From Yuukianura sp. NJ FZ-2021 (Eukaryota), in contig CM102286.1 in assembly GCA_046563655.1 (NCBI GenBank), positions 15,252,001 to 15,316,000 on the forward strand: a stretch of DNA of 64,000 nucleotides. The letters are read 5' to 3'. The notes under the pieces were generated by a model, which was not told the DNA's origin, made no database searches, and saw only the letters and a list, made by a program, of their open reading frames with translations. Position numbers and translations under genes: made by a program. Within the stretch, counting starts at the first letter, position 1. Every line of letters starts with the position of its first letter. Positions 6,472 through 44,900 of the stretch are shown here, piece after piece.

Positions 6472-9400
6472 TTAGTACTCTTCTTGAAGCACTTTTAAGT
6501 TCCTACGTTGTCATTAAAAATGTTTGTGCTTACCCCTGTTCGTTGTGCTGTTGTGGTGGGGCAGAGAGGGATCCAAAGTCCTCTGGAGGGAGTTTGGTCA
6601 CATGACTTCCCAAACTGCTAGTAGTTACTTTGTGTGTTTTGGTGGGAGAGGATGCAGGAGAGGGCTGGATGGAGAGACTGACGTAGTAGTTCCTGGACGG
6701 ATCTAAACTGTTGTTTGGCAACGTAAAGATTTGGGAAGTGGCACCCTGTTGTACTTCGACTGTGATTGGACTCGAAGTTTCCTCTCTTCTCGGAGCAATA
6801 ATCATTTGAACTCCCGGATTCGGTTTCTGGAGTGGAGAGCGACTGAGGGGTCCTGGAGGTTTACTTCCATCAACCTTCGGCAGAAACGGCGTCCTCCTTC
6901 CCTTTGCAACTAAAAAAAAAGTCAATTTCATAAAATTAAACAATCGAACTGTGAAAGGTAGAGTGTCTGCAAAATTAGGTTTAACCATAACAGCATTGGG
7001 AGGCAGATGCCAAAGCTTTCATGGTTGAATAAAACTGTGTAGAGCGACCCCACAGGTCAATTTAACCATAAAAGCATTGGGAGAGACTTCCTATGTTTTT
7101 ATGGTTAAATCGAACTGTGTAGAGTATCCATACAGTTGAATTTAACCATAAAAGCATTGGGAGAGACTTCCTATGTTTTTATGGTTAAACAGAACTGTGT
7201 AGAGTATCCATACAGTTGAATTTAACCATAAAAGCATTGGGAGAGACTTCCTATGTTTTTATGGTTAAACAGAACTGTGTAGAGTATCCATACAGTTGAA
7301 TTTAACCATAAAAGCATTGGGGGAGACTTTCCATGTTTTTATGGTTACGCCTGCTACGGACTTACTGTGCTGCTGCTGTGCTGTTGCCGTGCCATCCCCG
7401 TGCTTTGCATTGTTAGCATCCTAACTTCCCAATTTTTAGCGGAAGCACAACATGCTCTCTGCTTACCGTGCTCATGCTCTGTTCAAATTTCATCCGGTAA
7501 GTTAGGATCGAATCGGTAAATTTTCTTGCATTTTTGCAAGCAAATCACTGGTTTCCCACTCAAAAGTCATTTTTAAATCACTATTTAATAAAAAATGTCA
7601 GATTTGTGTTCTCCATACACGAATTAGTCTAAAAACTGATTTTCATCAAAATCAAGCAAAAAAAAAGTTTCGAAAAAAAATTTTTTTTAATTTTTTTAAA
7701 ACAGTTTTTGAGAGCGTGACAAAAAATAGGTTTACGTGTTCAGGGGTCCATAAGGTATTTTAGAAAAAAAAATTTAAAAAAATCCGAGTCACATGCTGAA
7801 AGTAATATTTTTCCCAACTATCTCCACCAACAGTTTCATGGGCTCTTCATGACGAAAATAAGGTCGTCGTCCACTGGCACCGCGATAGGTCAAGGGCCAA
7901 AGGTCAAAGGCCATCATGCTTTACGTCAATCAACTCCACTTGGTCTCCCCTTTCGATTGAAATACTATATGCCTATGTTTCCTTTGATTTCCCATGAGGT
8001 CACTGCGCCGGTGTCAAAGGTCAAAGGACAGGTCAACATGTGACATAGCCTACGCTTTTCGGAGTGACCTCACGAAGAGAAGGACACCTCATTTGTCCAA
8101 ATCGGTCCAGTAGTTTCGGAGGAGTATTCAGAAAATGAACAAAAAATAATTGTAAAAGCAAATTTGCTCTCGTCGTGCTTCCTCAAAAGTTGCTTCCGTC
8201 CCTACTTTCAAAAAAGCACGGTAAGAGCAGGAGCACGGTAAGGTAAACGGTAAGTTAGGATGCTTGCCCTTGCTCTGTCGTTGCCTTGGGAAAATGAGGC
8301 AGCACAGCACGGGGAAGGCACAAGTAAGTTAGGATCGGTAATTTTTAACAAAAACAACGCAGCAAAGCATCGTCAAGGCAGCAGCACGGTAAGTCCGTAC
8401 CGAGCGTTAAACAGAACTGTGTAGAGTATCCATACAGTTGAATTTAACCTTAAAAGCATTGGGAGAGACTTCCTATGTTTTTATGGTTAAACAGAACTGT
8501 GTAGAGTATCCTTACAGTTGAATTTAAGAATAAAAGGATTGGGAGAGACTTCCAGTTTTTATGGTTAAACAGAACTGTGTAGAGTATCATTACAGTTGAA
8601 TCTATTATATACTAATGAGCACCTGTCACCCCGGAATTGCATAGCAACCGATAGTTTGTTAATTTTGAATTCGGTGCCCGCATAGTTACGAGAGAATTTG
8701 TTTACACTAAAATTTTTTGACACAAAAACACAAACCCAAAAAAAAAACAACATTTTCCTTTGTTTCCGAATATACCGTACACGATGTCGTCTTAACAACA
8801 GTAAGAGGGAGAAATTCGCACATGGACCCATCTATATATCTGTTATATTACTAATGAGCACTGGTAATTCCGCTTCTGCCTAGCATCCGATAGTTTGATG
8901 ACTTCGGCGAATAGTTACTGATTTAACAACGGCTTATTGTTGATTATTTAACATCAATCGTTTCCGTTAACAACTGCAAATTTATTTCTGCTTAACTGCT
9001 ACTCTCTCTTCATGAATCCGCGTTGACGTGAGCACAAATCTGAATTTAAAAAGTGTGATTTTTTATATTTCATTTTTAATGTTTTGAAATTTGGAATTAT
9101 GTTATTTAAAAAGAGTGATTTTCCTACCAAACTTTTAACGTTTTGGAATTTGGAATTATGTTATTTAAAAAGAGTGATTTTCCTACTAAACTTTTAACGT
9201 TTTGGAATTTGGAATTATGTTATTTAAAAAGAGTGATTTTCCTACTAAACTTTTAACGTTTTGGAATTTGGAATTATGTTATTTAAAAAGAGTGATTTTC
9301 CTACTAAACTTTTAACGTTTTGGAATTTGGAATTATGTTATTTAAAAAGAGTGATTTTCCTACTAAACTTTTAACGTTTTGGAATTTGGAATTATGTTAT

Positions 9401-12400
9401 TTAAAAAGAGTGATTTTCCTACTAAACTTTTAACGTTTTGGAATTTGGAATTATGTTATTTAAAAAGAGTGATTTTCCTACTAAACTTTTAACGTTTTGG
9501 AATTTGGAATTATGTTATTTAAAAAGAGTGATTTTCCTACTAAACTTTTAACGTTTTGGAATTTGGAATTATGTTATTTAAAAAGAGTGATTTCCCTACT
9601 AAACTTTTAACGTTTTGGAATTTGGAATTATGTTATTTAAAAAGAGTGATTTCCCTACTAAACTTTTAACGTTTTGGAATTTGGAATTATGTTATTTAAA
9701 AAGAGTGATTTTCCTACTAAACTTTTAACGTTATGGAATTTGGAATTATGTTATTTAAAAAGAGTGATTTTCCTACTAAACTTTTAACGTTTTGGAATTT
9801 GGAATTATGTTATTTAAAAAGAGTGATTTTCCTACTAAACTTTTAACGTTATGGAATTTGGAATTATGTTATTTAAAAAGAGTGATTTTCCTACTAAACT
9901 TTTAACGTTATGGAATTTGGAATTATGTTATTTAAAAAGAGTGATTTTCCTACTAAACTTTTAACGTTTTGGAATTTGGAATTATGTTATTTAAAAAGAG
10001 TGATTTTCCTACTAAACTTTTAACGTTTTGGAATTTGGAATTATGTTATTTAAAAAGAGTGATTTTCCTTCTATCTATCCATTATACTAATGAGAAGTTG
10101 CTATTCCGGAATTGCATAGTTTACCGATTTCCCAAACACCAAAAATACCTCTTGATAATTTTGCCACAGACTTTTTATCTGTATGCTAGACACATCGTAG
10201 CAGGAACAGATTTCAGTGCGATTTAACCCGAGGGACATCAGCTAAAACTTTGGAATTCAGTGTGATTTAACACCAGACACATTAGCTAAGATTTCAGAAT
10301 TCAGTATGATTGGCCAGCTCCCGATAATCTTCAAATCATCAACCTCCCTGGGAAAAACCAACAAGGCTGCTTAAATTGTGACCAGGACGATTGAACGGGT
10401 CTGGGGCGAAGCCCCAGCAAGTTTTGCGCAGCAAAGCTTGTTTAACCATAAAAGCATTGGGAGAGACTTCCTATGTTTTTATGGTTAAACAGAACTGTGT
10501 AGAGTATCCTTACAGTTGAATTTAACCATAAAAGGATTGGGAGAGACTTCCAATGTTTTTATGGTTAAACAGAACTGTGTAGAGTATCCTTACAGTTGAA
10601 TTTAACCATAAAAGGATTGGGAGAGACTTCCAATGTTTTTATGGTTAAATAGAACTGTATAGAGTATCCATACAGTTGAATTTAACCATAAAAGCATTGG
10701 GACGTATATGCGGATGTACTTATGGTTAAAAAAGACGAAAGAAAGGAAGTTGTCTCACTGTAAGCGGCACAAGGAATGCCGACGTAAGCGTGGGATGCAT
10801 GGTGACATCTATGAGTCAAGTGAGTGCAGTCTTCGTTGTGATGACTGTCTGGTCGTTCGTATTCTTCCAGAAAAGGTAACTTTGTTGCGTTCATTTTCTT
10901 GAGTGCCAAACTCAACTTTTCCAAGTCATCCGATGGAGCAAATCTCGGCAGAAGTTTCCGATTCGCTTGAAGAAGACGCAGTTGTTCTGCAAAATAAGAT
11001 TCACATTGCTATAACTTCAAGTTCTTTTAAAATGGTTTGAAATTGTTACCGTATAAATATTTTTCGAAACTTCTAAAAGTGTAAGCTCCATCAAACTCCC
11101 TGTAGTTGATGCTCAGCCCTGCTTTTCTGTATCCATCGGCTAAGCGTTTCACCAAAACTTGTTCGTTTGCCTTTCCCGCCCGAATTTGAAGTCGTTTCAA
11201 TTCCAGAAGCTCTTGAAATATTTTCCTCTCCAGATGATACCTTCCAAAGACAAATTCAAATTCACTTTTAGAAGAAAACTTTCGGAATTCTTGTTTGTTT
11301 TTGCTTACTTTCTCATGCTGGCTTGCATGGCTTGTGTGACAGAAATGGGCGTGTCCACATCCAAACTTTTCTTCTGGTATGGACTCATGACAGCATTTAA
11401 ATTCTCCCCCTTTGTAAAAGTCAACTTGGAGCGAGGTCTGTTGGTCACTGCTCTGCCTTTTGTGTGGTCCATCCGAAATCCATCTTCACTCGTCACTGAA
11501 CCCCCGTGCGAATGCGACGTGGATCCAGCAGATCCATTCTCCAAAGGTGGAAGGCGGGACGATGTGAATCTTTGACTCTGCACTTTCGAATCACCAATCT
11601 TCTGTCCATTTCCTTTGGTTCCACCCACAGAAACTCCAGAATTGGATCCAGGACGTCTGGAAATGACTTTGCGACGAGACAACCCACCGCCAGTCACTTT
11701 AGACCCACTTCCATCCTCCACTCCTCGCTGCTTTGATCTCAACTGAAACCGAGTCTGATCTTCAGATGCAGAAGTGGTGTGATGAACCTCACTGTAGCCA
11801 GAATCTCTTTTCCAAGACAGTGGAGTTCCATCTGACTGCGTACTCGTCTTCCCCTCAGAAATATTCCGCATTCGCACCACTCTTTTCTCTCCAGGGATTG
11901 AAAGCGTGGTCCTCTCAACTCCAGTTGTGCTTGATTTGGGAATTTTGGAAGTTTTGCGTCGACTGGGAAGAGAATAAGTGGAAGCGGGATAGTAAACTTC
12001 TTCATACTCTTCTGGATTTTCTAGTTCCGAAGCAGAAGTGTAACTTTTCTGGCTAAACCGCTGTCCAATTTGTTTTCCTGAGGATTTGGAGAAGGCAGCA
12101 GTCGATTTCTTCTCCAGCATCTCTCGATTGGCTTTGAATTGCTCACGAACACTCAGTCTCTCGGTGCTTTTGGCAGAAACACTCAAAGTGTTTTTAATTC
12201 TCCCATCTACAATTTCCTTTTCTTTCTTCAGTTGAGGCTTTTCGTTTGGATTTTGGCTTTTTGCTGATTGTTCCTCCTTTTGCTGTTTGCTTTTTCTGCG
12301 TTTGGCGTAAGCTTCCTGGAGAGAAAGGCCTTGTGCCCCTTCCTTGCTTCCGTCCAGCCAAATCGTGTCATCCGTGTCCTCAGTTTCTTGGTCCTTGGAA

Positions 12401-15400
12401 GTGACAGAATCATAGTCTGGTGCAATGGTTCTTGAGGATTCAGTTTTAGGAAGTTGATGGACGTTGTGGTCTGATTTGTGTGAAGTTGTTGCAGTTGTGG
12501 TCGTGGTTTCAAAGGAAGTGCTTGGAGACACCTCTTCTTTGGCTTCTTCAACTATGGACGAAATTTCTTGCAAATTGGATTCAGCCGATCTTCTCTCCAA
12601 AATGGAATCAGTGGATTTTGTTTCAGTTGATACAAAGTCTGCAGGAGGAGGAACTTGCGCTGCTTGGTTTTCATCCAATGTCTGACCATTCAAGTCGGAA
12701 TCTCTCTTCATTTCTACAGTTTCACCAACCTCTGCTGTTTCTTGGACTAATTTGGAATGTTCTGTTGGTTGAACTGTGACATGTAGCGTAGAATCTGTGA
12801 AATTCTTTGGATTAGCTTCCACTGTCGTCTCCGAAGCACGCCATTACATCAGAAAAAAGACATAAGCAGAAAAGACATAAGCACCAAACACATAAGCACG
12901 AAAGACATAAGCAATGCAAAGACATCAGCACTGCAAACACATCAGCACGAAACACATAAGCAGGAAAGACATAAGCATGTCAAACACATCAGCAACGTAA
13001 ACACATCAGCAGATCACAAATTCCTCCGAAATTAAATTGAACTGCATTGACGTTTTTTTTTTCATTTTTTAGTGAATGTAGTTTATAAATAACGTTAAGG
13101 TTAAGGTTATGGTCATCTTTAAGTAAATACCATTAGTAGGATTAGTAAGTAGATTCTGTTAAAAATCTTTAGGTTAGGTTTGGTAAGGCTATCAATTGGG
13201 AGATTGGGCGAGATTAAGTTGTAACTTACAACTTGTAAGTCATTAGGTTAGGTTTGGTTAGCACATGAAACTGCTCGAAACGCCATAATGCAATTTATTT
13301 TAATTTCGGAGGAATTTGTGATCTGCTGATGTGTTTACGTTGCTGATGTGTTTGACATGCTTATGTCTTTCCTGCTTATGTGTTTCGTGCTGATGTGTTT
13401 GCAGTGCTGATGTCTTTGCATTGCTTATGTCTTTCGTGCTTATGTGTTTGGTGCTTATGTCTTTTCTGCTGATGTCTTTTTTCTGATGTATTGGCATGGA
13501 CCCGTCGTCTCAATTCCAGCACTGGAAGATGGGTCCTTGGATTCTGTGATTGGAGAAACAACTGGTACTGGAGGAGATTCTTCACTTGTGTTGGTGGGAC
13601 TGGCACTTGAAGCAGATTCAGCAGTTGAAGTAGGTGTATTAACTCCAAATCCAGCACATTCCTTAGTTTCCGTTTCTTGAATCGCAGAAAGTCTTGTGGG
13701 TTGAATGGCTTCAGATGTTTGTACATCCACTTTTGCTAAAGCGGCAACTGCGGGGTGCAACTCTTCCTGTCTAGCGTCACTCTCCGCCGAATGATCAACA
13801 TTCTCCAGCTCAGAAAAGTGTTGACTGGAAAAGTCAGTTTCACTTCCAGCAGACACGACTTCTCTCCTGGCGGACAAAGCTCTCTCCCCTTGAATAATTG
13901 AGGACGTTTGGTCATTAAGCTCTTCTTTCCCAGTCACACTTCCTCCTTTGGGTGGCAATGACTCAGAGTCATCCACCTTATCCAAAATGACAACTTGTGG
14001 TTCCTCTGACATTTGAGGTTGTTGACTCCCTTCAACAGTCAAGTCATCCACCACTTGCGACTCGCTTTTCACTGCAGTTGAAGACGTTGAGCGACGACTG
14101 GCACGAGATCGGTTGAATTCGGGCATAACTTCAGCAGAATCTGTGCTTTCATTGGCATACGAAGGACTCTTCTCCCTTGGCATTGACTTTCGCTTTTTCC
14201 TTACTTTCTTGACAGAAACTCTGGAGGAAGAGGAGAGACGCCGCTCTAAAGTCACTTCAAGTTTAGAGACGTCTGGATTGGTAGCTTCGTCAATTCCGTT
14301 GGCCACTTGTGTCTGTGCATTTCTAAGGTAAAGTGTTGAATCTGTTTGAACAGAGTCGTCTGTGATTGGAGTTGGAGCTGGAGTGGCTGTAGATGCATTG
14401 GCAGTTTCCTTCAAAATTGCACCAACTAAAGAATTGGCATAGTCCGCAACAGTGGATTCTTCTGTTGGTGGCAGAGGCGTTAGGAAGGGAGGATGCAGAG
14501 CCACGTCTGGAGAAGACTCAAAGTGGACTGGATGCCCAAGGTCACTTCCACGCAAACTGCTCGTAGTTCCACCTTCGCTCTCAACATTCCTACAAACAAT
14601 CAGTTTCATCAAAATTAATTCATAAATTAATTATAAATTAATAGATTAATAATAAATTAAAATCCAATAAACATAATTAATAATTAGGAATGAATTACCT
14701 TGTAAATCTTCTCTGGAGAGCGACTGAAGAATTGAGAGAGTTGGCAGGGAGTCCCCCATGCATTTGGAGGAATTTGGCCACTGCACTGTTTCCTTTATGC
14801 AATGCTGCGTCGAGGGGAGTCATTGGAATGCCTTTTCCAGTGCGCATGAGTGGATTAACTTCAGCATGGTGATCCAGCAGAATCTAAAACAAACTTGTAG
14901 TTACAAATGAGGAAGGAATTGAAGTTTATGAAGTTAAGATTATTCTGAAGTTCTACCTTGAGCATTTCCATGTTGTTGTGGAGAGCTGCCAAGTGGATGG
15001 GACACCTTCCGTCGTTGTTTCCCGAGTTGACTACATGTTCTCTCTGAGAGACGAGCCAGAGGACGAGATCTTTGCGTTTTGAGATGACAGCTTCATGCAG
15101 AGGCAGATCTCCCCTCACGTTCTTCATCCACAGATTCCCCCCGTGTTTAGCCAGTAGTTTGATCGTCTCCAACTGCCCTTTGCTAGCTCCGCAGTGCGCA
15201 GGAGTCCTTCCTTTCCGATCCTGTCGATTCGGATCTGCTCCAAAGTTCAGCAGAAGCTCAGTACAGTCGGCATGCCCAAGTGTCACGGCGTAGAAAATGG
15301 CTGCACATCCGTTGTTGTCAATCACATCAACTTCTGCTCCACACAACCCAATCAGCGTCTCCAAACAGTCAGTGTGACCTCGACTAGCCGCACAGTGCAG

Positions 15401-17021
15401 AGCTGCAATCATAATCATTCCATTTATCCCAATTCCAATTGATTTATTAAATTAATAGATTAGAGAATTGAACAGACCTGTTAGGCCATCCTTGTCTTCA
15501 GCCTGGACACTCGCGCCTGCATTGACGAGACACAGGATTCCATCAGCACTTCCTAAAAAAAAATTGATTTTCAAAAATTTTGAAAGTAAACAATCGGCAA
15601 CTTTGGAATTGCGGAATTACATCTTCTCATTAGTATTATAATTAATACTATTGAGAAGATGAACGTCCAGAGTTATATTTTTCCATTAGTATTGTAATTA
15701 CAATTTGTAATTGGTAATAATTACCAATTACAGATAGTACATAAATCACACCGTTGAATTTAACCATAAAAGCATAGGGAGAGACTTCCCATGTTTTTAT
15801 GGTTAAATAGAACTGTGTAGAGTAGCCATACAGTTGAATTTAACCATAAAAGCATTGGGAGAGACTTCCAATGTTTTTATGGTTAAACAGAACTGTGTAA
15901 AGTTTCGACACAGTTGAATTTAACCATAAAAGCATTGGGAGAGACTTCCAATGTTTTTATGGTTAAACAGAACTGTGTAGAGTATCCTTACAGTTGAATT
16001 TAACCATAAAAGCATTGGGAGAGACTTCCAATTTATGTAATTTGTGATAGAGATTGTTGTGAAGTACCTTACCTGCACTTGCCGCCCACAGAAGAGGTTG
16101 TCTTCCGTCTCTGTCCTTGACATCCACTGGAACGCCGTGCTGGAGGAGTTTATGCAAAATGGCCAAGGCCCTCTTGGGATTAACTCCGAACACACTTCTG
16201 ACTCTGTCTCCCTCTGCTCGTCTTCCTCCTCCATCACCACACATTTGACTGGCGTAGTGGATGGGATGGGCGTTATGAATGTCTGGAGTGGCTGCTGGAG
16301 CACCGGCAGACAGAAGAATGTCCACAATCTCCACCTCACCACACACTGAAACGAAAAAGAAGAAAGTGACATACAAAGTGACACTACAATCAATTTGAGT
16401 TGATGACTTACCGGTGGCCCAGTGGACGAGGGAGTGTTTCTCATTGTCTAAGCAGTTGACTTGAGCCTTGGCCCCCAGTAGACTCTTCACAATATCTCCG
16501 TGTCCATTGATCACTGCGAGATGCAGAGGAGTGTAGCCCTCTTCATCGCAGGAATTGAGCAGTGTAGGATCAGCAGCCAGGAGGAGATGGAGACACTTCA
16601 CACTGCCCCCTTCACAGCAAAAATGCAACGCCACTTTCCCACTCTTGCTCCTCACCCGAACAGAATCCTTCTAAAAAACAAACAAAAGAACAGCAATATT
16701 GCAAAATGTTGAACAAAAAGTTAAGAGTTTTTAAAAATGGCTGGGAATTACGTTTTTTCTGAGGAGAGCCTTGACATCGTGGATTCTGCTTTGGAGAGCT
16801 GCTAGCATGAGTGCCGTGAGTCCCTCTGCGTTCTGCGGCTGACCTGAAGAAGTGTCTTGTGTGGGTGAGGTCATGGTTTGTGTGTAGTTGAGCTGGAGTG
16901 TGGTTGTGGTCGTCGTGGTTCTGTTGAGAGTGTAGTAGGAAGGGGGGAACTGGATTCGTTTCCTTCTGCTTCCAGTGTCTCTACTTCCGTTTCGGTGGAT
17001 CTCAGTTCCACCTCCAGCCAT
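6472..17021 (-). CDS. Large ankyrin-repeat protein (N-terminal ankyrin array, long Ser/Thr/Glu-rich region, conserved-looking His/Cys C-terminal motif)
   Basis: Ankyrin exons at ~14700-16870 (GYTPLHLAVINGH, TPAHCGASKG, GDLPLHEAV, GRCPIHLAALHN). The long exon 11307-14589 is split by an inserted element. C-terminal exons lie at ~10759-10987 (CTHLTHRCHHASHAYVGIPCAAY), ~6534-6909 and 6472-6502; their splice phases are compatible. Confidence 0.8.
6975..7347. repeat. 80-bp palindromic minisatellite, block 1
   Basis: tttaaccata recurs at 7061, 7141, 7221 and 7301. Each unit has inverted arms TTAACCATAAAA...TTTTATGGTTAA. Confidence 0.9.
7348..8406. mobile_element. Non-autonomous TIR element (MITE) with TTA target-site duplication, PIF/Harbinger-like
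   Basis: Left end CGCCTGCTACGGACTTACTGTGCTGCTGC matches the reverse complement of the right end, CGCTCGGTACGGACTTACCGTGCTGCTGC. TTA lies at 7345-7347 and 8407-8409. Removing the element restores the satellite unit atggTTAaacag. Confidence 0.8.
8407..8600. repeat. 80-bp palindromic minisatellite, block 2
   Basis: Same unit as 6975-7347, about 2.5 copies. Confidence 0.9.
8601..10440 (+). mobile_element. Non-autonomous Helitron with central tandem array
   Basis: Starts with TC at 8601 and ends with CTTG at 10440, after hairpins CTGGGGCGAAGCCCCAG and CAAGTTTTGCGCAGCAAAGCTTG. It sits between host A(8600) and T(10441) with no TSD. Removing it restores the satellite junction gttgaa|tttaacc. Confidence 0.8.
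9045..10068. repeat. 59-bp tandem repeat, ~17 near-identical copies, inside the Helitron
   Basis: Unit ttggaattatgttatttaaaaagagtgattttcctactaaacttttaacgttttggaat with period 59 (e.g. 9091, 9150). Confidence 0.95.
10441..10730. repeat. 80-bp palindromic minisatellite, block 3
   Basis: tttaaccata at 10441, 10521, 10601 and 10681. Confidence 0.9.
12832..13503. mobile_element. 672-bp non-autonomous element with ~200-bp TIRs and an 8-bp TSD, inserted in a coding exon
   Basis: 12832-~13036 is a near-perfect inverted copy of ~13299-13503, built from GACATAAGCA/CACATCAGCA subrepeats. GTCGTCTC flanks both sides (12824-12831 and 13504-13511). Removing the element plus one TSD fuses the two long ORFs in frame (AGIETT-VEANPK). 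Confidence 0.9.
15750..16033. repeat. 80-bp palindromic minisatellite, block 4 (another intron of the same gene)
   Basis: Same unit as 6975-7347, about 3.5 copies. Confidence 0.9.
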
Positions 17022-17899: not shown

Positions 17900-18450
17900 T
17901 GTTCTCTAGCAAAGACTTTATGGTAAAAAGATAAACAGTAGGGATACTTCCAGTGGCCGATTTTTGTTAATTTTGTATACCAGCGTTCTACCAATGACTT
18001 TATGGTGAAAAGATAAACAGTAGGGATACTTCCAGTGGCCGATTTTTGTTAAATTTTGTATATCGGTGTTCTAGCTATGATTTTATGGTGAAAAGATAAA
18101 CAGCAAGGATACTTCCACAGTGGCCGATTTTTGTTAATTTTGTATAGCATCGTTCTACCAATGACTTTATGGTGAAGAGATAAACAGTAGGGATACTTCC
18201 AGTGGCCGATTTTTGTTAATTTTGTATACCAGCGTTCTACCAATGACTTTATGGTGAAAAGATAAACAGTAGGGATACTTCCAGTGGCCGATTTTTTTTA
18301 AATTTTGTATACCAGCGTTCTACCAATGACTTTATGGTGAAAAGATAAACAGTAGGAATACTTCCAGTGGCCGATTTTTGTTAATTTTGTATATCTGTGT
18401 TCTAGCTATGATTTTATGGTTAAAAGACAACAGTGGGATTTCTCCAGTAC
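17900..18450. repeat. ~82-bp minisatellite, ~6 copies
   Basis: Unit tttatggtgaaaagataaacagtagggatacttccagtggccgatttttgttaattttgtatac...; gggatact at 17941, 18023 and onward. Confidence 0.9.
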
Positions 18451-21836: not shown

Positions 21837-24800
21837 TCATCCGCTGTAGTCATTGGCTGTCGTGATGAGAGTGGCAAGAACTGAGGCTGTGTTGGACGTG
21901 GGACTCACTGCCGAGTGATTGGAGTTTGAATTGCTGTGCAGAGCAGAGTTCGTGGGGCACTTGGGCTTCCCGTGCTTCACTCGCACATGCGCATTGAGGT
22001 TGTCACTGCGTGTGTAGACACAGGGGCAGTAGGGACAGGCATAAGTGCCAGGCATGTGCACGAACCGGTGCTTCCTTCCGCGAACCAACTTCCCACACAA
22101 CTTGCACCGCTTCAAGTGCGGACTCCCTTTCACCTTCTCAAAGATCGAACCGAAGATCCGACCTGCAATGCAAAACAACCAAAGTAAACAACTTTGAGAC
22201 TGAAACGTTGTGAAAATGTTACCGAATAACGCATCTTTACTTTGGATTGAAGTTAGTTGAACTTTGACCACACAATTTAACAAATTCAGTTTTAATTCTA
22301 AAATCCCCATCCCAATAACATAGTAACTAGTAGTAAGCACTACAATTATTTCTCATAACCAAAGAAAGAGGAAGTTAGGGAAACATTTTGGCTCTAATTT
22401 GAAGGTGGGCCTCGCTTTGGTTCAAGTGGTTTGGTGATTGTGGGTGGGGCGAAGGTAGGTAGGTGGGAATGTGGTTGAACGTCCACTTTGTGGTACACTT
22501 TGAGATGATTTCTGAGCGTGGACTCTCGTGGGTACTCGTGGCTGCACAAATAGCACACGAAGCTCCTCCCCCGCCCTCCTCCGTAAACTTCCGGTAAAGA
22601 TCCTCTACTTGTTCGTCTCCCCGGCAGAAACGAGGTCAAGGTCACTGCAGAGCTGGATCTAAGCGGGAAGGGAACTCCGTGAGGAAGTGGCTGCCCTCTG
22701 TGGACATGAATTGTGTCCCGTGTCCCACCCACCCTTGTGGCCACCTTGATTGGAGTGGAGTGAGAACTGGACGCTTCCCTCCCTACGCCAACTGCAACCA
22801 ACAAAACAAAGGTTGGGAGTAGTTGAGCCACCACTTTAACAATCTAACTCCAGTTCTCACTCCAGTTCCTCACTATAACTTTAATCTCTTCTCCCAAAAA
22901 CTTAAAAACTACCAAGAATTTAACACTTTTTGTTGTGTAGTTTCATAATAAAAATGTACAAGTAAAGTTGAATGCATACCATCCTGAACGTCAAGCCCAT
23001 CCAGATTTGCAGAGCCTAGTTCAGATCCATCTTTGTCATCGTCACTTGTAGACTTGTCCTGGAATTCACAAATTATAAAGTTACAAGTAGTTATACTTCG
23101 TATTTAGTGTTTAAATTTTTAAGTAAAAGTACCAAGAGTGAGGCAGCATGTGGGTAGTAGCCAATGGAGTAGCCACCTTCATCCAACTCCTCGTCATCAT
23201 CGTCGTCGTCCTCCGCCTTGATGTCCATGTTCAAACCATCCTCATCATCGTAGTCCTCTCCATCATCTTCTCCAGCGTCTCTCTCGAGCACTGGCATGAG
23301 GAAAGAAGTAGGTTCCACGAGCGTCTGCCCACTCTCCGTCATTGAACTCACACGCACTGGGTTCTTCACTTTTCCACTCGACCTAATGGCTATCAGCCCC
23401 GGAGGGGAAGGACGACCCCCTGATGATGAAGAAATAGACACTGAATCAGCTCCTCGACACTGCTCTACTTTGGCCATCTAAAATACAAACAATATTCACC
23501 AACAATTTAAAAACAGTTTGACTTTACACAAAACTGAATTTGTATTAAAAATCTGACAATACTAAAAAATGTACGGTTTATTTGTCTGTCTCAAATGGGG
23601 GATTTTTGCCCCCGATTGGCCAAGCTATTGGTTCCCTGTTTTCTTTTTCAGTATATTTGACATTATGTGAATTCTAAAAATTCCACAACATTCTTTTTAT
23701 CTTTTTTAAAACACCAGTTGAACGGGCGAAGCCCCAGTAAGCATGCTTAGCATCCCTAGTATGTACTCTCTGGCTACTACAAAACAAATATGACCTTGGT
23801 AAGTAGTAGCCACAGAGTACATACTACTTATGGTTAAAAGATAAACAGTGGGGATACTTCCAGTGGCTGATTTTTGTTAATTTTATATACCTGCTTTCTA
23901 GCAATGATTTTATGGTTAAAAGACAAACAGTGGGGATACTTCCAGTGGCTGATTTTTGTGAATTTTGTATACCTGCTTTCTAGCAATAATTTTATGGTTA
24001 AAAGCCAAACAGTAGGGATACTTCCAGTGGCTGATTTTTGTGAATTTTGTATACTTGCTTTCTAGCAATGATTTTATGGTTAAAAGACAAACAGTGAGGA
24101 TACTTCCAGTGGCTGATTTTTGTTAATTTTGTATACTTGCTTTCTAGCAATGATTTTATGGTTAAAAGACAAACAGTGAGGATACTTCCAGTGGCTGATT
24201 TTTGTGAATTTTGTATACCTGCTTTCTAGCTATGATTTTATGGTAGTAGTCCCTCAAGTAACAATTACCAGGAGGCTTGCAATTTTCTGGGACGAAGTCC
24301 CAGCAAGCATGCTTTGCATTCTTGTTAAAAACTAAAATCGAATAAAAATCGTAACTTACGCTGGAGTCTTCGTCGCCGCTGCTGTTGGATAGTCGTCGTT
24401 TCTTGTGTCTGTTGGAAGCGTGTGTTTCAGGCGTGCGTGGTTCCGTTGTGTTGGAGGTGGGTGGGTGCGGGGCAGAGGGGTGTCTGGTGGCTGTGGCGGG
24501 TGGAGTTGGTGGCGTGCCTGAGTCGGGGTCGTTGGAAGAGGAGTCGCATCCCTCTGTGAGTCCGCGTATTTTTAAGGCCTCTGCAGTTTTGAGGAAGTCT
24601 GACAAAGTGGACTGAGAGACGTTGACCTCTCCTTTGTACATGAAAGAGAGGAGAGCCTTCATCTCCTGCCCCTTGATGTCCTTCATGAAGATGATGGGAT
24701 GTGGGTGGGCGTTCTTGACAAGGACACTTTCAAAGTAGGGGAGCAGGCGGAGAGGACTGTTTGGTGGGCCTTGAAGGTCTGTCCTTCGCAGGCCAGCGTC

Positions 24801-27798: not shown

Positions 27799-30700
27799 CT
27801 AACCCAAGTAGAAGGGGAGGTGTTGTTCATATGGAACTTGTGTAGCTGTGGGACGCCGTTCAAAGTGTGTCACTCTGGACATGTGACATTCTGGGTCCGG
27901 ATTTTGGAAGGGCGGTTGGGGTGGGGATGGTCGCTTGGCTCTTTTGCCTCTCGTGGAGCCGGGAGTGAGTTGTCGCTTCGTCTCGAGCCCCGTGATGCGG
28001 GTCGCCTCCTCCTTCGTCTTCCCATGGACTGACATGAGGTGGGTGAAGAGCTGCTCTCTTCGCACGTACTTCCGGAGACAATATTCGCAAGTCTTTGGCT
28101 TCACTGCCACCGTGTACTTCCGGATGGCGGGAGGGAGCTTCACTTTGGCCAGAGACCGAGCCTCTTCGTCACTCAGTTTGTGGACTGACATGAGGTGGTC
28201 CTTGAGGTAGTGCTTGAAGGCATAGCCCTTCCCACACAACTCGCAGATCTGGTCGATGATCGTCTTCTTGACGTGCTGCCTCCGTTTGTGGATCTCCATC
28301 CGCTGCTTCACCTTGAACACTTTCCCACAAATGTCGCAGACGGAAGGATCCCCTGCGCATGGGCCTCTGCCTTGTGCAAGTCCAGATTGTAGCGACGTCG
28401 AAACTTGGCTCCACAAATGTCGCAGTCTTTGCTTCTGCGCAGTCGCCCGTTATGAATCCCCTCATGTTCTTGCAAGTAGGCTAAAAAGTTAACAGGCCAT
28501 CAGTTAATTTTGTTATCGAGGAAGTGTTGATTGTGTAGAATCGTAGAATATGGCGGCCCCAGAAAGCCAATCTATTCTTGCATTTTGTAATTCAAATAGC
28601 ATTGCAATTGCATTTTTTAAATCAATTGCAATTGCATTTTATTTTGCATTTCAACTCCGAATGCAGTTGAAATGAAAATAAAATTACAATAAAAATACAA
28701 TTGCAAATTGCAATTGACATGCAACGGAAAATACAACTGAAATGCAAATGAAATACAATAGTAATTGTAATTTGCAATTCAAATGGCAATAAAAATGTAA
28801 ATTGGAATTTAAATGTAAATGAAAATATTGCAATTGAAAGGAAATTGAAAATACAATGGAAATTGAAATGAAGGTATAAATGCAAGTGAAATGCTATTTG
28901 AATTACAAAACGACAAAAACAGCGTTGGCACTCTGGGGCCACCATAGACTTAAGCTTACATTTGGAGTTGAAGGAGGCCCCGCAGAGTGAGCACAGGAAT
29001 TTCTGTGCTGTTCCGTCGTGAGTGACTGCCCTGTGCTGTTTCAAACTCAGTTCGTTCACAAAGTCTCTCCCACAAGTTTCACAGGGAACACGACCAGTTC
29101 TGAGGTGGACTGACTGGACATGCGTGAGCAGAACGAAGCGACTCTTGAACTTCTTGCCGCAGAGGGGGCAGGGACGCACTTTGCCTGGAATGGGCACAAG
29201 AGTGTCGCTGGAATGGAAGTTGTAGCCAGTATGGACAGAGTGCGTCTCCTCCTGATGAACAACCCAGTCTCGGAAAGTGGGCAGCGACACTGCTGGACAC
29301 GAAGTGGCATCGCACTTGTACTCCGTAGTGATGAGCAGTGTTTTCTCCTCTTCCGTCATGTCTCTTGCTTTTCGTCTCTTGGTCACTTTCTGGACATGTC
29401 GATGAGGGTGTGTACGCTTGACGTGACTACGCAGAGCATCGTTCGTCCGGAAGTTTTTGTGGCAACCCTCTTCATCACAAAAGAAAGGACGCAGAGCTGC
29501 ATGTGTGTTCACTTCGTGCTCCTCCAAGTAGCCTACGAACAATAAAAAAAAACAAATATCACACTTTAGCTTAGCAATAGTATTACAACTAGCATGCTGC
29601 CCATGCTTGCCGGGGCTTTGCCCCAGATCCGTTCAACCGATTAAAAGTTCTAAAGCTAAATAAAAATTCAACGAAAATCTAACTTTCGGACGTCCTAGAT
29701 TAGACAAAAATTCAACTGAAATCTAACAAGATTTCATCAAGAAGAAATTTTAGGTATCCCTGAGACTTAGCCAGATTTCATCCAGAAGAAATTTTAGATA
29801 GACCTGAGACAGCTATATTTTATCCGGAAGAAGTTTTCGATATTCTTGAGCTTACATGTAAGTGTATAGATTTTATCCTAGCCTAACCTAATCCAAGATT
29901 TCAATCCTAGCCTAACCTCATATAGGAATTCGAATCCCATCCTAACCTAATCTAATCTAACGCTTCGAATCCTAGCCTAAACTAATCTAAGGATTCAAAT
30001 CCTAATAGGAAATTTTAGATATTATTGAGACAGCTAGATTTCATCAAGAAGAAATTTTCGATATTCCTGAGACTTAGCCAATCTAATCCCATCCTAACCT
30101 AATCTAATCTAACGATTAGAATCCTAGCCTAAATTATGTAAGAATTCGAATCCTATCCTAGCCTCAGCTAATTTAAGGATTGCAATCCTATCCTAACCTA
30201 ATCTAATCTAAGGATTAAAGGAAAAATTTTAGATATTCCTGAGACAGCTAGATTTCATCAAGAGGAAATTTTATATATTATTGAGACAGCTAGATTTCAT
30301 CCAGAAGAAATTTTCGATATTCCTGAGACTTAGCTAATCTAATCCCATCCTAACCTAATCTAATCTAACGATTAGAATCCTAGCCTAAATTATGTAAGAA
30401 TTCGAATCCTATCCTAGCCTCAGCTAATTTAAGGATTGCAATCCTATCCTAACCTAATCTAATCTAACGATTAGAATCCTAGCCTAAATTATGTAAGAAT
30501 TCGAATCCTATCCTAGCCTAAGCTAAGCTAAAATTTAATTCAGGATATTCCTCGAGCATTTTGCTCGAGAAATTTATTCCAGGATATTCCTCGAGCAGTT
30601 TGCTCGAAAAAATCAGGATATTCCTGAGACTTTTAGCTAGATTTCAAGGAAAAATTTTAGATATTCCTGATACAGCTAGATTTCATCAAGAGGAAATTTT

Positions 30701-33700
30701 AGATATTCCTGAGACTTAGCTAATCTAAACCCATCCTAACCTAATCTAATCTAACGATTAGAATCCTAGCCTAAATTATGTAAGAATTCGAATCCTATCC
30801 TAGCCTCAGCTAATTTAAGGATTGCAATCCTATCCTAACCTAATCTAATCTAACGATTAGAATCCTAGCCTAAATTATGTAAGAATTCGAATCCTATCCT
30901 AGCCTAAGCTAAGCTAAGCTAAGCTAAAATTTATTCCAGGATATTCCTCGAGCATTTTGCTCGAGAAATTTATTCCAGGATATTCCTCGAGCAGTTTGCT
31001 CGAAAAAATCAGGATATTCCTGAGACTTTTAGCTAGATTTCAAGGTAAAATTTTAGATATTCCTGACACAGCTAGATTTCATCAAGAGGAAATTTTAGAT
31101 ATTATTGAGACAGCTAGATTTCATCAAGAAGAAATTTTCGATATTCCTGAGACTTAGCTAATCTAATCCCATCCTAACCTAATCTAATCTAACGATTAGA
31201 ATCCTAGCCTAAATTATGTAAGAATTCGAATCCTATCCTAGCCTCAGCTAATTTAAGGATTGCAATCCTATCCTAACCTAATCTAATCTAACGATTAAAG
31301 GAAAAATTTTAGATATTCCTGAGACAGCTAGATTTCATCAAGAGGAAATTTTATATATTATTGAGACAGCTAGATTTCATCCAGAAGAAATTTTAGATAG
31401 ACCTGAGACAGCTATATTTTATCCGGAAGAAGTTTTCGATATTCTTGAGCTTACATGTAAGTGTATAGATTTCATCCTAGCCTAACCTAATCCAAGATTT
31501 CAATCCTAGCCTAACCTCATATAGGAATTCGAATCCCATCCTAACCTAATCTAATCTAACGCTTCGAATCCTAGCCTAAACTAATCTAAGGATTCAAATC
31601 CTAATAGGAAATTTTAGATATTATTGAGACAGCTAGATTTCATCAAGAAGAAATTTTCGATATTCCTGAGACTTAGCTAATCTAATCCCATCCTAACCTA
31701 ATCTAATCTAACGATTAGAATCCTAGCCTAAATTATGTAAGAATTCGAATCCTATCCTAGCCTCAGCTAATTTAAGGATTGCAATCCTATCCTAACCTAA
31801 TCTAATCTAACGATTAGAATCCTAGCCTAAATTATGTAAGAATTCGAATCCTATCCTAGCCTAAGCTAAGCTAAGCTAAGCTAAAATTTATTCCAGGATA
31901 TTCCTCGAGCATTTTGCTCGAGAAATTTATTCCAGGATATTCCTCGAGCAGTTTGCTCGAAAAAATCAGGATATTCCTGAGACTTTTAGCTAGATTTCAA
32001 GGTAAAATTTTAGATATTCCTGACACAGCTAGATTTCATCAAGAGGAAATTTTAGATATTATTGCGACAGCTATAGATTTCATCTAGAAGAAATTTTCGA
32101 TATTCCTGAGACTTAGCTAATCTAATCCCATCCTAACCTAATCTAATCTAACGATTAGAATCCTAGCCTAAATTATGTAAGAATTCGAATCCTATCCTAG
32201 CCTCAGCTAATTTAAGGATTGCAATCCTATCCTAACCTAATCTAATCTAACGATTAAAGGAAAAATTTTAGATATTCCTGAGACAGCTAGATTTCATCAA
32301 GAGGAAATTTTATATATTATTGAGACAGCTAGATTTCATCCAGAAGAAATTTTAGATAGACCTCAGACAGCTATATTTTATCCGGAAGAAGTTTTCGATA
32401 TTCTTGAGCTTACATGTAAGTGTATAGATTTTATCCTAGCCTAACCTAATCCAAGATTTCAATTCTAGCCTAACTCAGGTTTTTAGGTTAGTAAATATAA
32501 AATTTAAGTCCGGGACTACATTACATCTTCTCATTAGTTATTGTAATAAATGAGATTAAAACGGTGGATAAATACCTTTGGTTGGGAATGCAGCGGAGCA
32601 AGTGAGGCATTTGAATTTGTTAGGGTGGCCACTGTGAGCTGACTTGGAGTGCCACTTGAGTCCGAGTCTGCTGGCAAAGTACCTGGGACAGGCGTCGCAG
32701 GAGAACTGCTTCAGTCGCAGATGAACTGTCCGAATGTGGAGGAGCATCTTGGGGTGACTGGGGGCCTTCCGCCCACACCTTGGGCAGGGCCCTTTGACAC
32801 AATATCACAATTATTGGAAAAGTTGAAGGAGATTTGAAAGAGTCCTTACTTGGTTTTCCAGGAACCGGGAGGAGCGGATCAGCGTGTAGATCATATCCAG
32901 TGTCGAGAGAATGAACAGAGTGCTGGTGAACCACCCACTGCTTGAAGGTGGGGAAAGAGACGTCAGTGCAGTCTTTGGAGTCACACTTGAAGTCGGAAGT
33001 GTTGAGAAGGGATTCCTCCTCGGAAGTGGGCACGTAGCTCCTTCGGTCCTTGTTCTTCAAATCACACTTTCTCACTTTCTTCTGCTCTTCACAATACTCG
33101 TCCTGTAACACAAAAACTGTTTAGTTTGTGATTCATATCTGGATTAATTTCCAAATGGATATTTAGTACACTGCTTGCCTCGGAGCGAGTGGATTTGCTT
33201 CCCCCTTGGCTGGATCTTGTGCATCTTCTCTTCCCTTGCATCTCCAAGGGAACTTCACCTTCAAATTCTGACTCCGATGATGGGACGACGCTCTCTTGCA
33301 AACCAACCTCTTTTCCAGTCGGACTTATCCCGCCTCTTCTACATTTCCGAATCCTCTCCAACTGCCAGGCGAAAAGTATAATCAATTATCAGATTAAGAA
33401 ACATTTTTTAGTACTTTAGCAAATTAGTAGTTTTCTAACTTACTTTTTCGAGTACTAGACAACCCCGTTCTGTTGCTTGTTTCTTTCCCAAGTTCCTGGT
33501 ACTTTTCCTTGTCTGGCCCAAGTCATGTCTACTTGATGGTTCGGAATGATTGGGTGCTACCACTCGATCGTGAGTCAATTGTGTGTCTCCTGAAGGGGCT
33601 GCTTCTGTCGGAATTCCTTCCGCTTGTCCAGACTCAATTCCTTCACTCTTTCCCCAAATGACGTTCTGTCCAGCGTCGTCCAAGGACTCTGATCCCAAGT

Positions 33701-34667: not shown

Positions 34668-35237
34668 GCGATTTCCCGGGGTTATCGCCATATCTGTGGT
34701 AGATCTGCTAGGGCGATTTCCCGGGGTTATCGCCATATCTGTGGTAGATCTGCTAGGGCGATTTCCCGGGGTTATCGCCATATCTGTGGTAGATCTGCTA
34801 GGGCGATTTTCCGGGGTTATCGCCATATCTGTGGCAGATCTGCTAGGGCGATTTCCCGGGGTTATCGCCATATCTATGGTAGATCTGCTAGGGCGATTTC
34901 CCGGGGTTATCGCCATATCTATGGTAGATCTGCTAGGGCGATTTCCCGGGGTTATCGCCATATCTATGGGAGATCTGCTAGGGCGATTTCCCGGGGTTAT
35001 CGCCATATCTATGGTAGATCTGCTAGGGCGATTTCCCGGGGTTATCGCCATATACGTTGTAGATCTGCGAGGGCGATTTCCCGGGGTTATCGCCATATAC
35101 GTTGTAGATCTGCGAGGGCGATTTCCCGGGGTTATCGGCATATCTGTTGTAGATCTGCGAGGGCGATTTCCCGGGGTTATCGGCATATCTGTTGTAGATC
35201 TGCGAGGGCGATTTCCCGGGGTTATCGCCATATCTGT
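34668..35237. repeat. 45-bp GC-rich tandem repeat, ~12.5 copies
   Basis: Unit gcgatttcccggggttatcgccatatctgtggtagatctgctagg. It produces the 15-aa periodic ORFs seen on both strands. Confidence 0.95.
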
Positions 35238-41938: not shown

Positions 41939-44900
41939 ATGCCCCTGCTCAAACGAACTCCGTTCATCCCTAACCCAATTCCGGATGACCTCAGACCAGA
42001 CGAAACTGTCTTCTACTCCAAACTCACCAATGAAATATTCAGAGACTACGAGTAAGATATTGGAGTAACAGTGTACAGAACCATCTGATCCATCTCCTAC
42101 TCCCAAATATAAGTTTCTCATTTTATGTTTATGTAATTTCCAGGGAATACTTTGAGCGAGTGATTTTGTGCAATTCGTTGGTGTGGGCCTGTTCCGTGAC
42201 TGGGAAGATCAATCTGACTTTCGACGAAGCTCTACAAAGTGAGAGACAAGCACAGAAAACTGTCCATTCATTCTGTCCTGCCGTAAGTCGCTTTCACTTG
42301 TTTCAATTGTTATGAACTTTGAAGTTGGGAAGTGGATGAGAGTGTGATGTGATTGTTTTTAGCTAAAGAAGGGTCTTCTGTACCTAATCAACGAAACTCG
42401 ACGGGGGAAGGTGGGTGACATTGTGGAGGACATTTTCTCCTACGCCAAAGAGCACTACTTTGTGGGGGAGAGTGTGCTGGGAGTCATTGGGAACTTGTGG
42501 TGTCACTCCAGGGTCATCAGAGTCATTCCACCCACAAAACAGGAAATCGACCAGTTCAGACGAGAGAAGGAGGCCAAGGGCAAACTAGAACCCAACGACT
42601 ACCTCAGGTATCACTCAACATTACAACTTATTAATTTATTATAATTTATTAATTATGATTTATTAATTATAATTTGTTGTAGTGATGACACTTGGGGCCC
42701 GCCTCCTGATCTCTTTCGCTACGAAGTGGAGGAGACTGATCCTGATGATCCCACCCTCCATGAAGTCCACATTCTGGAGTCCATAGATGTGAAGAGGGAG
42801 AAAGTGAGTTTGACAAAAGACAAATGTCGGTTCTTGATCAAGGCCACTTCCATCTACGACGAAGAGGAGTGTGTGTGGCGAGTGAGAGAGGAAGTGGCAG
42901 CCTCTGTTGGTCTGCGCAGTGTTGTTTTTGACGGTGGGCTGTTCGTGGGTCCAGTTCCAATTTTTGAGTCTTCTCCTGGTCCAGTCAGGAAAAGCGAAGG
43001 GAAGAAGAGGAAACAGACAGAGTCACCCACTGCTTCAAAACCAAAGCCGAAACAAAAACTTTCCAATGGGAACGGAGTTTCTCCAATCAATAAGCCGTCT
43101 CCGCCCCCAGTTTTGTCCAAGAGTGACCAGACGCGTAACCGACCGAAGAAGTCGGCAGAAAAGTAAGTTCTACTGCTATTATTTCCTTCTAATTTTTCTT
43201 TATGAACTTTCATTTTAATTTTTGTTTAGGAAGGAGAAGGTGCTTTCACCAGAGGAGCTGAAACGGCTGGAATTGGAACGACGAATGGTGGAGAAAGAAG
43301 CACAGAAGGAAGAGAAGAAAGTGCTGGCTGAATTCAAGAAACTTTGGCTGCGACCGAAGGAGGATCTGGAAGTGGAGGATCTACAGGTTTGTACTAATTA
43401 TTTGTTGAATCGCCAAACTACATACCAAAAAAATGTTAAATGTTTTTTTTTGTTGCTTAGGAACTTCCTGTGGGTGATCCCGTTGACTGCAAAATTCCTG
43501 GTGAGCTGTTTGGTGACTTCCTGCTGGTTCTGGAGTACCTCAATTGTGGCTCTCCCTTTCTGCGTCTGCGTGACTCTTTTCCGCAGGGACTTGAGTTTGA
43601 CGTGCTGGAAAGAGCTCTGTGCAAATCAGAAGTTGCAGGTAATTCTCCTCTTTCTACTTTTTTTAGTATCTCAACATTCTGCACTCTACTAACTTTGATT
43701 TGTGATTGACAGGACCTTTGAGTGACATTCTCCAACTACTACTGGGAGCAATATTTCGTCTGCAGGAGAGAGAGGCAGCTGAAATCACACAAGAACAAAA
43801 AGCAACTCCAGCACTTGGTTAGTTTCTTCTTTTTGAGTTGAGAAAAAAGATTGAAGTTTGTATTGTTTAGAGTTGGAAGAGGATGGCTGTGACGAAGTGG
43901 GTTTGGTGGAACAAGCGACGGTGGCTGCGACATGGCCACTCATATACCAGGGATTGCCACTTTATCAGTTGACTTTGGACCACTTGTCTTTGTCTGAACT
44001 GTTAAGACTTCATCTCCTGTCGTCTGGAGCTCGTTGTGGAGACAAGGATGTGAAGTGGAGAGTGCAGAATCGAGGCGGTTATTCGCACAGAGAGGATCCA
44101 GGACTGGGTTATCGCCTGGAGGAGGCAGAGGCCCTCAAGGGACTCCAAACTGGAAGTGTGTATGAGTTGTCTGTGAAGCAGAAACTGAAGCTCCTCTCTT
44201 GTCTCATTCATCAGATCCTGAGCTACGCAGAAGTGAGAGATTCCATCGAGCAGAACTTTGATCAGTTGAGGGAAACACGGTTGGAACTGAGGACTCTGCA
44301 GGCGGCAGAGAGGAGACACGAAACAGAGGACAACGCTTGGAAGTAAGCCTCAATCTTAGTTACTTTCAAAATCAACTCTGTATTTGTCTATTTCAACTTT
44401 GTTTCTGTTCATTTCAATTGTCTATTTTGTATTTCAACTGTTTATGTTTGTATTTGTGTTTTAGAGCGAAGCTGAAGAGTGAGCGCCTTGTTCCGCCTGA
44501 GAATTTCCTCAAGAATCCGACTGCGTCCGTACCTGAGAAAGCCCGACTTTTGTCTGATGATGAAATTGAGGGATTCGTTGCGAAGCGGAGTCGAGAGGCG
44601 ACGAGGCGGAAGGAGAACTTTGAATGTCGGATTGAAGAGTTGTGGCGTCGTCAGCAGCGGCAAGAGAGACTGCTGGGGCTCCATCCGTTGGGCAGAGACA
44701 GAGCATACAGAAGATACTGGCTCTCCCCCTCTGTCCCTGCACTCTTCGTGGAAAATGAGGATGAGCACATGGGCCCTTGCTGTCCAGTCCCCACTCCACA
44801 CATTCCCAACATTGACATCCAAGACATCTCTTTCGTCCGCAAATACCACAAACAGGTACTTTCTACTCCTCCATTATCAATCAATTAATAGTAAACTAAG

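Follow-up and report, generated by a model that had tools for sequence, protein, structure and literature searches.

Mutator-like elements (MULEs) of Aedes produce target-site duplications of 8–9 bp in 14 of 14 families, carry terminal inverted repeats (TIRs) longer than 100 bp in 12 of the 14, and contain subterminal tandem repeats of 9–15 bp in 10 of those 12, according to the family descriptions given in PMC5225508. The same account places non-autonomous derivatives in the hundreds, with heterogeneous internal sequence, and describes the tips of Muta1 as imperfectly paired, terming Muta1 a type-2 Foldback element (PMC5225508). Tetris of Drosophila virilis is a foldback element that lacks an open reading frame (ORF) and is flanked by duplications of 8–10 bp, and on that basis its authors assign it to Mutator (PMC4079207). 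A transposon of this general build is present in a coding exon of an ankyrin-repeat gene of Yuukianura sp. NJ FZ-2021, within a stretch of 64,000 nt (assembly GCA_046563655.1, contig CM102286.1, positions 15,252,001–15,316,000) that is referred to here as the window and numbered from its first letter. The insertion is best read as a young, segregating, non-autonomous Mutator-like/Foldback element, most likely a loss-of-function or truncating allele and not a new intron, a reading to which a probability of roughly three in four is assigned. A preliminary description of the locus had proposed instead that the element could be spliced out as a perfect intron, in the manner of the Introners.

The transposon consists of 672 bp (12832–13503) within an exon that is read on the minus strand. 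It is flanked by two copies of an 8-bp target-site duplication, GTCGTCTC on the plus strand, at 12824–12831 and 13504–13511; element and duplication both lie where the preliminary description had placed them. The TIR arms, 12837–13048 and 13287–13498, are 212 nt each, the second being the reverse complement of the first with 6 mismatches in 212 positions (97% complementary), and 238 nt lie between them. Each arm carries about ten subterminal tandem repeats of a 14-nt motif at a spacing of 15/17 nt. The outermost 5 nt of the element, GGGTC at one tip and CGAAG at the other, are unpaired, a difference that had been noticed before and is confirmed here, and pairing begins at CAYGCCAWTACATCAG. On the minus strand, the reading enters the element as ...ATT GAG ACG AC/GGGTCCATGCC... 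(13511–13493) and leaves it as ...GCGTGCTTCG/GAGACGAC AG TGGAAGC (12841–12815), the slash marking the border. The terminal 19-mer occurs twice, against 0.06 occurrences expected, and this count, together with a fold z-score of −41, places the TIRs and the duplication far beyond chance.

No long ORF is present in the element, as each sense frame contains 10–16 stops. By structure, it can be classed as a non-autonomous transposon of the Mutator-like/Foldback type, in that the TIRs exceed 100 bp (212 nt), the duplication falls in the range of 8–10 bp (8 bp), and subterminal tandem repeats are present (10 copies of the 14-nt motif). The internal region (13049–13286, 238 nt), which forms the loop of the predicted hairpin, is rich in CCTAA motifs, and other members of the family have it in replaced or shortened form. 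Part of this interior (~13160–13260) has AACCTAACCTAA motifs similar to those of an array at 29729–32408, in which repeats with units of 35, 42, 99, 256, and 386 nt are nested and CCTAA/CCTAACCTAA is frequent; the matches between the two extend over only ~20 nt at 85%.

The allelic state of the locus is revealed by contigs from four of five public runs, all five listed as probable DNA. The four come from two studies, and their contigs were aligned to positions 11400–14600. Three of the runs (X1, X2, and X4) derive from one sample, and the fourth (X5) derives from the other study and bears another organism label. The contigs of all four runs contain a joint from 12823 to 13504 that skips 680 nt and leaves a single copy of the duplication, whose eight letters are ambiguous in that they fit either side. 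In X4, record 17 (3378 nt) joins 11400–12823 to 13504–14600 on a haplotype that differs from the window by ~3%. The corresponding record 28 of X5 joins 12644–12823 to 13504–13731 with 4 and 0 differences, and record 6 of X1 contains the joint with a right flank that equals the window over 231 nt. Records reach lengths of 403 kb in X1 and 275 kb in X4, which identifies both as DNA assemblies.

An origin of this joint in spliced RNA was considered and ruled out, as splicing would give ...ACGG/TGG... and the contigs read ...ACAG TGG.... The spliced product would be expected to show a joint from 12821 to 13502 with one ambiguous letter, in place of the one from 12823 to 13504 with eight, and no joint from 12821 to 13502 was found among the joints listed. 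Because the empty site occurs in DNA contigs, the insertion is a presence/absence polymorphism. It is young. The chromosome represented by the window carries it, and other haplotypes, in the same sample and in the second study, carry the intact exon. The pre-insertion sequence that the preliminary description had reconstructed is thus present as DNA in the empty-site contigs of all four runs, and the presence/absence comparison that it had suggested finds the empty site in contigs from both studies. The sample behind X1, X2, and X4 also contains at least two empty-site haplotypes, of which one equals the window along its right flank and the other differs by ~3% and has several in-frame indels; this suggests very high heterozygosity or a pooled sample.

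The contigs further show that the family of the element has many copies. The summed depth of contigs in X1 rises to 12,726 over the arms and is ~250 on the flanks, a difference of up to ~50-fold. Many contigs follow the window as far as 12832 or 13503 and run on from there into unrelated sequence, with many distinct flanks. These loose ends, 'before' 12832 and 'behind' 13503, are the points at which contigs from other copies diverge, and they confirm the limits of the element with its unpaired 5-nt tips included. Variants of the family in which the internal part has been replaced are marked by joints that skip 106 nt or 536 nt, with ~35 other letters in between. Within the 64-kb window, no second copy was detected, the only matches being self-matches and matches of 20 nt or less. 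A scan of public collections with the terminal 22-mer gave no hits in genome_contigs and none in viral_contigs. One locus returned by that scan from metagenome_contigs (L001) was rejected as a chance match, since only 23–26 nt are shared, the sequence is AT-rich, and no inverted repeat is found there.

The host exon (11309–14589, minus strand) is 3281 nt long as assembled and 2601 nt (867 codons) long without the insertion. Its limits follow from ORF continuity, with an acceptor at 14590 (TTGTTTGTAG/ga) and a donor at 11308 (aaa/GTAAGC), and with these boundaries the start and end phases of the uninterrupted exon match. Ankyrin repeats are encoded by an upstream exon of the same gene at 14864–15451 on the minus strand (Ank_2, E = 2e-37) and by a second upstream Ank exon at 15966–16670. 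The stop-to-stop ORF on the upstream side of the insertion (13455–14630) encodes 391 aa and includes 375 host codons, or 362 when the count begins at 14589, the inferred start of the exon. The ORF on the downstream side (11305–12843) encodes 512 aa, 505 of them beyond the AG that directly follows the duplication. The preliminary description had given flanking ORFs of 385 and 505 aa in a coding exon of ~2.6 kb. The exon and the figure of 505 stand, the former with 2601 nt and coding-like haplotype variation, and the figure of 385 is to be replaced by 375 host codons.

Variation among haplotypes from the public contigs has the character expected of a coding exon. Synonymous changes account for 24 of the 40 haplotype differences listed, compared with 23.7% expected for random changes (p = 1e-6), the test covering these 40 out of a set with 119 further differences. 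Variants that flank the insertion include 12754 G/T and 13591 T/A. The listed indels in the flanks are all frame-preserving, with sizes of 21, 3, 3, 6, 3, and 6 nt and, in addition, a GC+T pair of indels 4 nt apart. Because of the synonymous excess and the frame-preserving indels, the host exon can be regarded as real coding sequence. Protein searches returned no relative for its upstream half among longer proteins and only three matches for its downstream half among 1.84 billion representatives, all three in the last ~80 residues. The three matching proteins are unnamed and have no Pfam family. In these searches the surroundings of the insertion are therefore without detectable relatives. The exon is long, fast-evolving, and of a disordered-region kind.

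Tandem repeats lie close to the host gene. An 80-nt unit (91–96% matches) is repeated at four places, 6980–7347, 8406–8601, 10441–10702, and 15753–16032, one of which is the boundary of an ankyrin exon of the host gene and the following intron; it may be a dispersed satellite-like array or one borne by a miniature inverted-repeat transposable element. Just downstream of the host gene, a very homogeneous minisatellite at 9044–10073 consists of 17.4 copies of a 59-nt unit with 98% identity.

The sequence of events that would connect these observations begins with a cut-and-paste transposon with 212-bp TIRs, which would have inserted in the exon of the ankyrin-repeat gene and given rise to the 8-bp duplication. 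A transcript of the carrier allele would read GAG-ACG-ACG into the element and reach a stop after 15 further codons. The first in-frame stop on such a read-through is at 13455–13457 (minus strand), after ETT and 15 element-encoded residues, and the predicted protein would be cut short once the ankyrin repeats and ~362 exon-encoded residues had been translated. Alternatively, the carrier transcript may be mis-spliced at stronger cryptic sites inside the element. The two arms would fold into a double-stranded RNA hairpin of ~215 bp, and this hairpin would bury the sole T tract and the branch-point-like motif that precede the nominal AG. Under this scheme the truncating allele would be carried alongside intact alleles.

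The proposal that the element could act as an intron is founded on the geometry of its ends. The nominal 5' splice GT (13500–13501, minus strand, context CGG/GTCCAT) lies in an unpaired 5-nt tip of the element, and the nominal 3' splice AG (12822–12823, minus strand) is host sequence directly outside the duplication. The interval from GT at 13501–13500 to AG at 12823–12822 is exactly 680 nt, and the resulting junction reads E-T-T-V-E-A-N, the sole difference from the empty allele being ACG in place of ACA, which is synonymous. This much of the preliminary description, the interval, the restored residues, and the single synonymous change, holds true in the sequence. Insertions in the sense orientation were simulated across the host exon, and an AG was found right after the duplication at 221 of 2532 positions (8.7%); with antisense insertions, the GT..AG geometry arose at 20 of 2532. 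The GT..AG coincidence is therefore not beyond chance. Because this AG is part of neither the element nor its duplication, the family carries nothing with which to supply an AG elsewhere, and the splice sites here are not a pair furnished by the element and/or its duplication as they are in Introners.

The strength of the two sites was estimated with position weight matrices (PWMs) built from 30 short introns of the window, which were hand-curated from ORF continuity and not RNA-verified, and the local sites received leave-one-out scores. A calling of the shortest frame-preserving GT..AG intervals between ORFs was set aside as noisy, with antisense ORFs being picked up, and 40140 (GTCCCA, a possible GTC donor) and 59392 were left out of the set as unverified. 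The introns so inferred have a median length of 71 nt and a range of 46–142 nt, and the candidate would have 680 nt. Position +3 of the 30 local donors is occupied by A 24 times, by C 4 times, and by T twice; A occurs at +4 in 23 of them and G at +5 in only 12. The GTC donors are found at 58121, 58301, 56066 (GTCAGT, minus strand), and 484 (GTCTTA, minus strand). Each of them is followed by A or T at +4, and three of the four come after AG, most having the form AG/GTCA, and the genome thus appears to tolerate C at donor position +3. The preliminary description had pointed to GTC donors at 58121, 58301, and 59392; ORF continuity supports the first two, and the third could not be verified. A homology search with the gene at 57.9–59.4 kb gave no match for its GTC donors, which rest on ORF continuity.

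Against this background, the candidate donor CGG/GTCCAT, at 1.7 bits, ranks beneath 29 of the 30 local donors and is equaled or exceeded by 23% of the 120 GTs in the flanks of the exon. The acceptor, at −14.2 bits, falls short of every one of the 30 local acceptors (0.3 to 16.5 bits), and among 220 decoy AGs, 76% do at least as well. The 20 nt that precede its CAG contain 4 Ts, compared with 8–15 in local acceptors, in which the T run abuts the AG. Measured on the 30 hand-curated introns, the signals of the candidate are thus not comparable with those of host introns. Better cryptic sites were located by PWM inside the element. The acceptor among them is at 12931 (7.75 bits), and the donors are at 13338 (6.7 bits), 13051, 13093, 13130, and 13229.

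The predicted RNA fold of 12790–13540 has an energy of −428.9 kcal/mol, compared with −159 ± 7 kcal/mol for shuffled sequences (z = −41). The predicted stem begins 3 nt downstream of the donor G and stops 14 nt short of the AG. Both the T tract and the branch-point-like CTGAT, which is located 25–29 nt upstream of the AG, fall inside the 212-bp stem, and the 14 nt that the predicted structure leaves unpaired ahead of the AG are too few to accommodate another branch point. Given the positions of these signals, the hairpin is judged to be a probable hindrance to splicing rather than a help. The fold also pairs GGACCC at 13531–13536 (minus strand), ~30 nt upstream of the insertion, with the complementary tip GGGUCC at 13498–13503. 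This pairing would further occlude the nominal donor and is probably a coincidence.

These results bear on several other explanations of the locus. Precise spliceosomal removal of the 680 nt, from the GT at 13501 to the AG at 12822, with the family acting as an Introner in this animal, is very improbable. The interval and the restored frame are real, GTC donors occur in the window, CTGAT stands upstream of the AG, and CAG is a favored acceptor triplet. Introners that have one splice site of their own and co-opt the other are documented in PMC9860276, and in some transposon-derived introns the pairing of TIRs brings the intron ends together, as described in PMC11282704. Such pairing is also at the center of a more far-reaching conjecture, namely that carriers are spliced precisely, perhaps as the hairpin brings the sites within ~17 nt of each other, and that a foldback family seeds introns in a short-intron, arthropod-like genome; it would have to be counted a very long shot. 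Precise removal is opposed by the position of the AG, which nothing causes to recur at other insertions, by a donor near the bottom of the local range and an acceptor below it, by the enclosure of the T tract and CTGAT in the stem, by a length far above the local median of 71 nt, and by the stronger sites inside the element, which would compete. The path across the site in the contigs is that of the empty allele in all four runs, as is expected for a rare, possibly deleterious insertion. The Introner-like reading of the preliminary description is for these reasons not upheld.

A leaky or regulatory allele, arising through internal cryptic splicing, in-frame skipping of a symmetric exon, or the processing of the hairpin to small RNAs, is unlikely but would be compatible with several features of the locus. 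Strong cryptic sites are available within the element, the exon without its insert has 867 codons with matching phase at its inferred ends, and the arms would form a near-perfect hairpin of 212 bp. The imprecise splicing of exonic transposons is, moreover, classical in maize, Drosophila, and Caenorhabditis elegans. Cryptic internal splicing would nonetheless leave element sequence in the mRNA, and therefore stops, given the 10–16 in each frame, and the boundaries on which exon skipping depends are drawn from ORF continuity alone. It is extremely improbable that the insertion arose as an artefact of assembly, for example from a chimeric read or through the misjoining of haplotypes, and is carried by no chromosome. 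The contig that crosses the site is empty in four of four runs, and no bridge over a filled junction is present among the matches listed; contigs, however, drop rarer variants by design, and no conclusion on the filled junction is drawn from them. A complete element bounded by a perfect 8-bp target duplication is a signature of transposition, and an artefact would not create the duplication.

The interpretation as a young Mutator-like/Foldback insertion that truncates the protein faces a number of opposing points. The superfamily assignment is structural only, and the 8-bp duplication also fits hAT. The hAT elements have 8-bp duplications and short TIRs of ~10–25 bp, and TIRs of 212 bp with tandem subrepeats are atypical of them. 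The fate of the carrier transcript is inferred and not observed. The 30-intron set is hand-chosen and consists of short introns only, which makes the scores and the length comparison rough, and relaxed donors, including GTC in 4 of 30, are in use, the weakest of which scores only a little higher than the candidate. In addition, no contig with a filled junction was found among the matches listed, and the carrier allele rests on the assembly itself.

The locus provides a clean example of a recent exonic transposon insertion, with filled and empty alleles, an exact duplication, and a multi-copy foldback family. For annotation, the host gene should not be modeled with a 680-nt intron on sequence alone, and the element is a useful addition to the repeat library of this genome. 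To our knowledge, transposon-driven intron gain has rarely been caught at a polymorphic stage in animals. If carriers did splice precisely, the locus would show an Introner at the stage of a segregating polymorphism, and the empty allele would stand as its immediate predecessor. A single letter, G versus A, would tell spliced transcripts of carriers from those of the empty allele.

Other repeats and genes are distributed over the remainder of the window. An 82-nt tandem unit (89–95% matches) is present in 5–6.5 copies at each of two sites, 17905–18439 and 23828–24244. At 34668–35237, a 45-nt unit is repeated 12.7 times with 96% identity and is open in several frames on both strands, which produces spurious ORFs of ~200 aa. 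Pfam or motif matches identify a WHIM1/WSD/PHD (BAZ/Acf1-like) chromatin protein at 42034–46537 (plus strand) and a sugar transporter of the MFS family at 54606–56669 (minus strand). The segment at 61001–61490 (plus strand), recognized by eye, is presumably an exon of GTP cyclohydrolase I.

The element can be compared with several known systems. Like the Introners (PMC9860276, PMC12130899, PMC11282704), it is a short, non-autonomous, multi-copy DNA transposon with TIRs and a target-site duplication that has landed in a coding exon. As in those families, one nominal splice dinucleotide is located in a tip of the element, and removal of the element with its duplication would restore the mRNA. 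The co-opted site of Introners comes from the duplication or the element (PMC9860276), whereas the AG here is unduplicated host sequence. Median lengths of Introner families range from 30 to 654 nt in these papers, and the 672 bp of the present element lie just above that range. No insect Introner family was encountered in the Introner papers cited here (PMC9860276, PMC12130899, PMC11282704), supplementary species tables aside, and the word 'insect' appears only in passing in the text of PMC12130899 and PMC9860276. The splice signals of the present locus differ further from those of Introners in that they score like decoys.

Classical intron-like transposon alleles include Ds and dSpm in maize genes, 412 in Drosophila vermilion, and Tc1 in C. 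elegans. They resemble the present case in that an exonic transposon offers cryptic splice sites at its termini, and some of their transcripts lose most of the element. These alleles were demonstrated by cDNA and their splicing is usually imprecise, whereas the locus described here is known from DNA. Galileo, a foldback element of Drosophila from the P superfamily, has longer TIRs and a 7-bp duplication. With Galileo and with Tetris (PMC4079207), the element shares long, internally repetitive TIRs around a short non-coding middle, a likeness of structure. A close resemblance exists to Muta1 and Muta5 of Aedes aegypti (PMC5225508). It is a structural likeness as well, the element being known here without a MuDR-type transposase or an autonomous partner, and the unpaired tip, at 5 nt, is a point of difference. 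The TIRs are long in both cases, 145–151 bp in the Aedes elements and 212 bp here. In Muta1 and Muta5 they are composed of a short terminal motif followed by ~9 copies of a 12–15-bp subterminal repeat with short spacers, to which the ~10 copies at a spacing of 15/17 nt correspond in the present element (PMC5225508). Duplications of 8–9 bp (8 bp here), imperfectly paired extreme tips, and varied internal regions among non-autonomous copies complete the likeness between the Aedes elements and the transposon in the ankyrin-repeat gene (PMC5225508).

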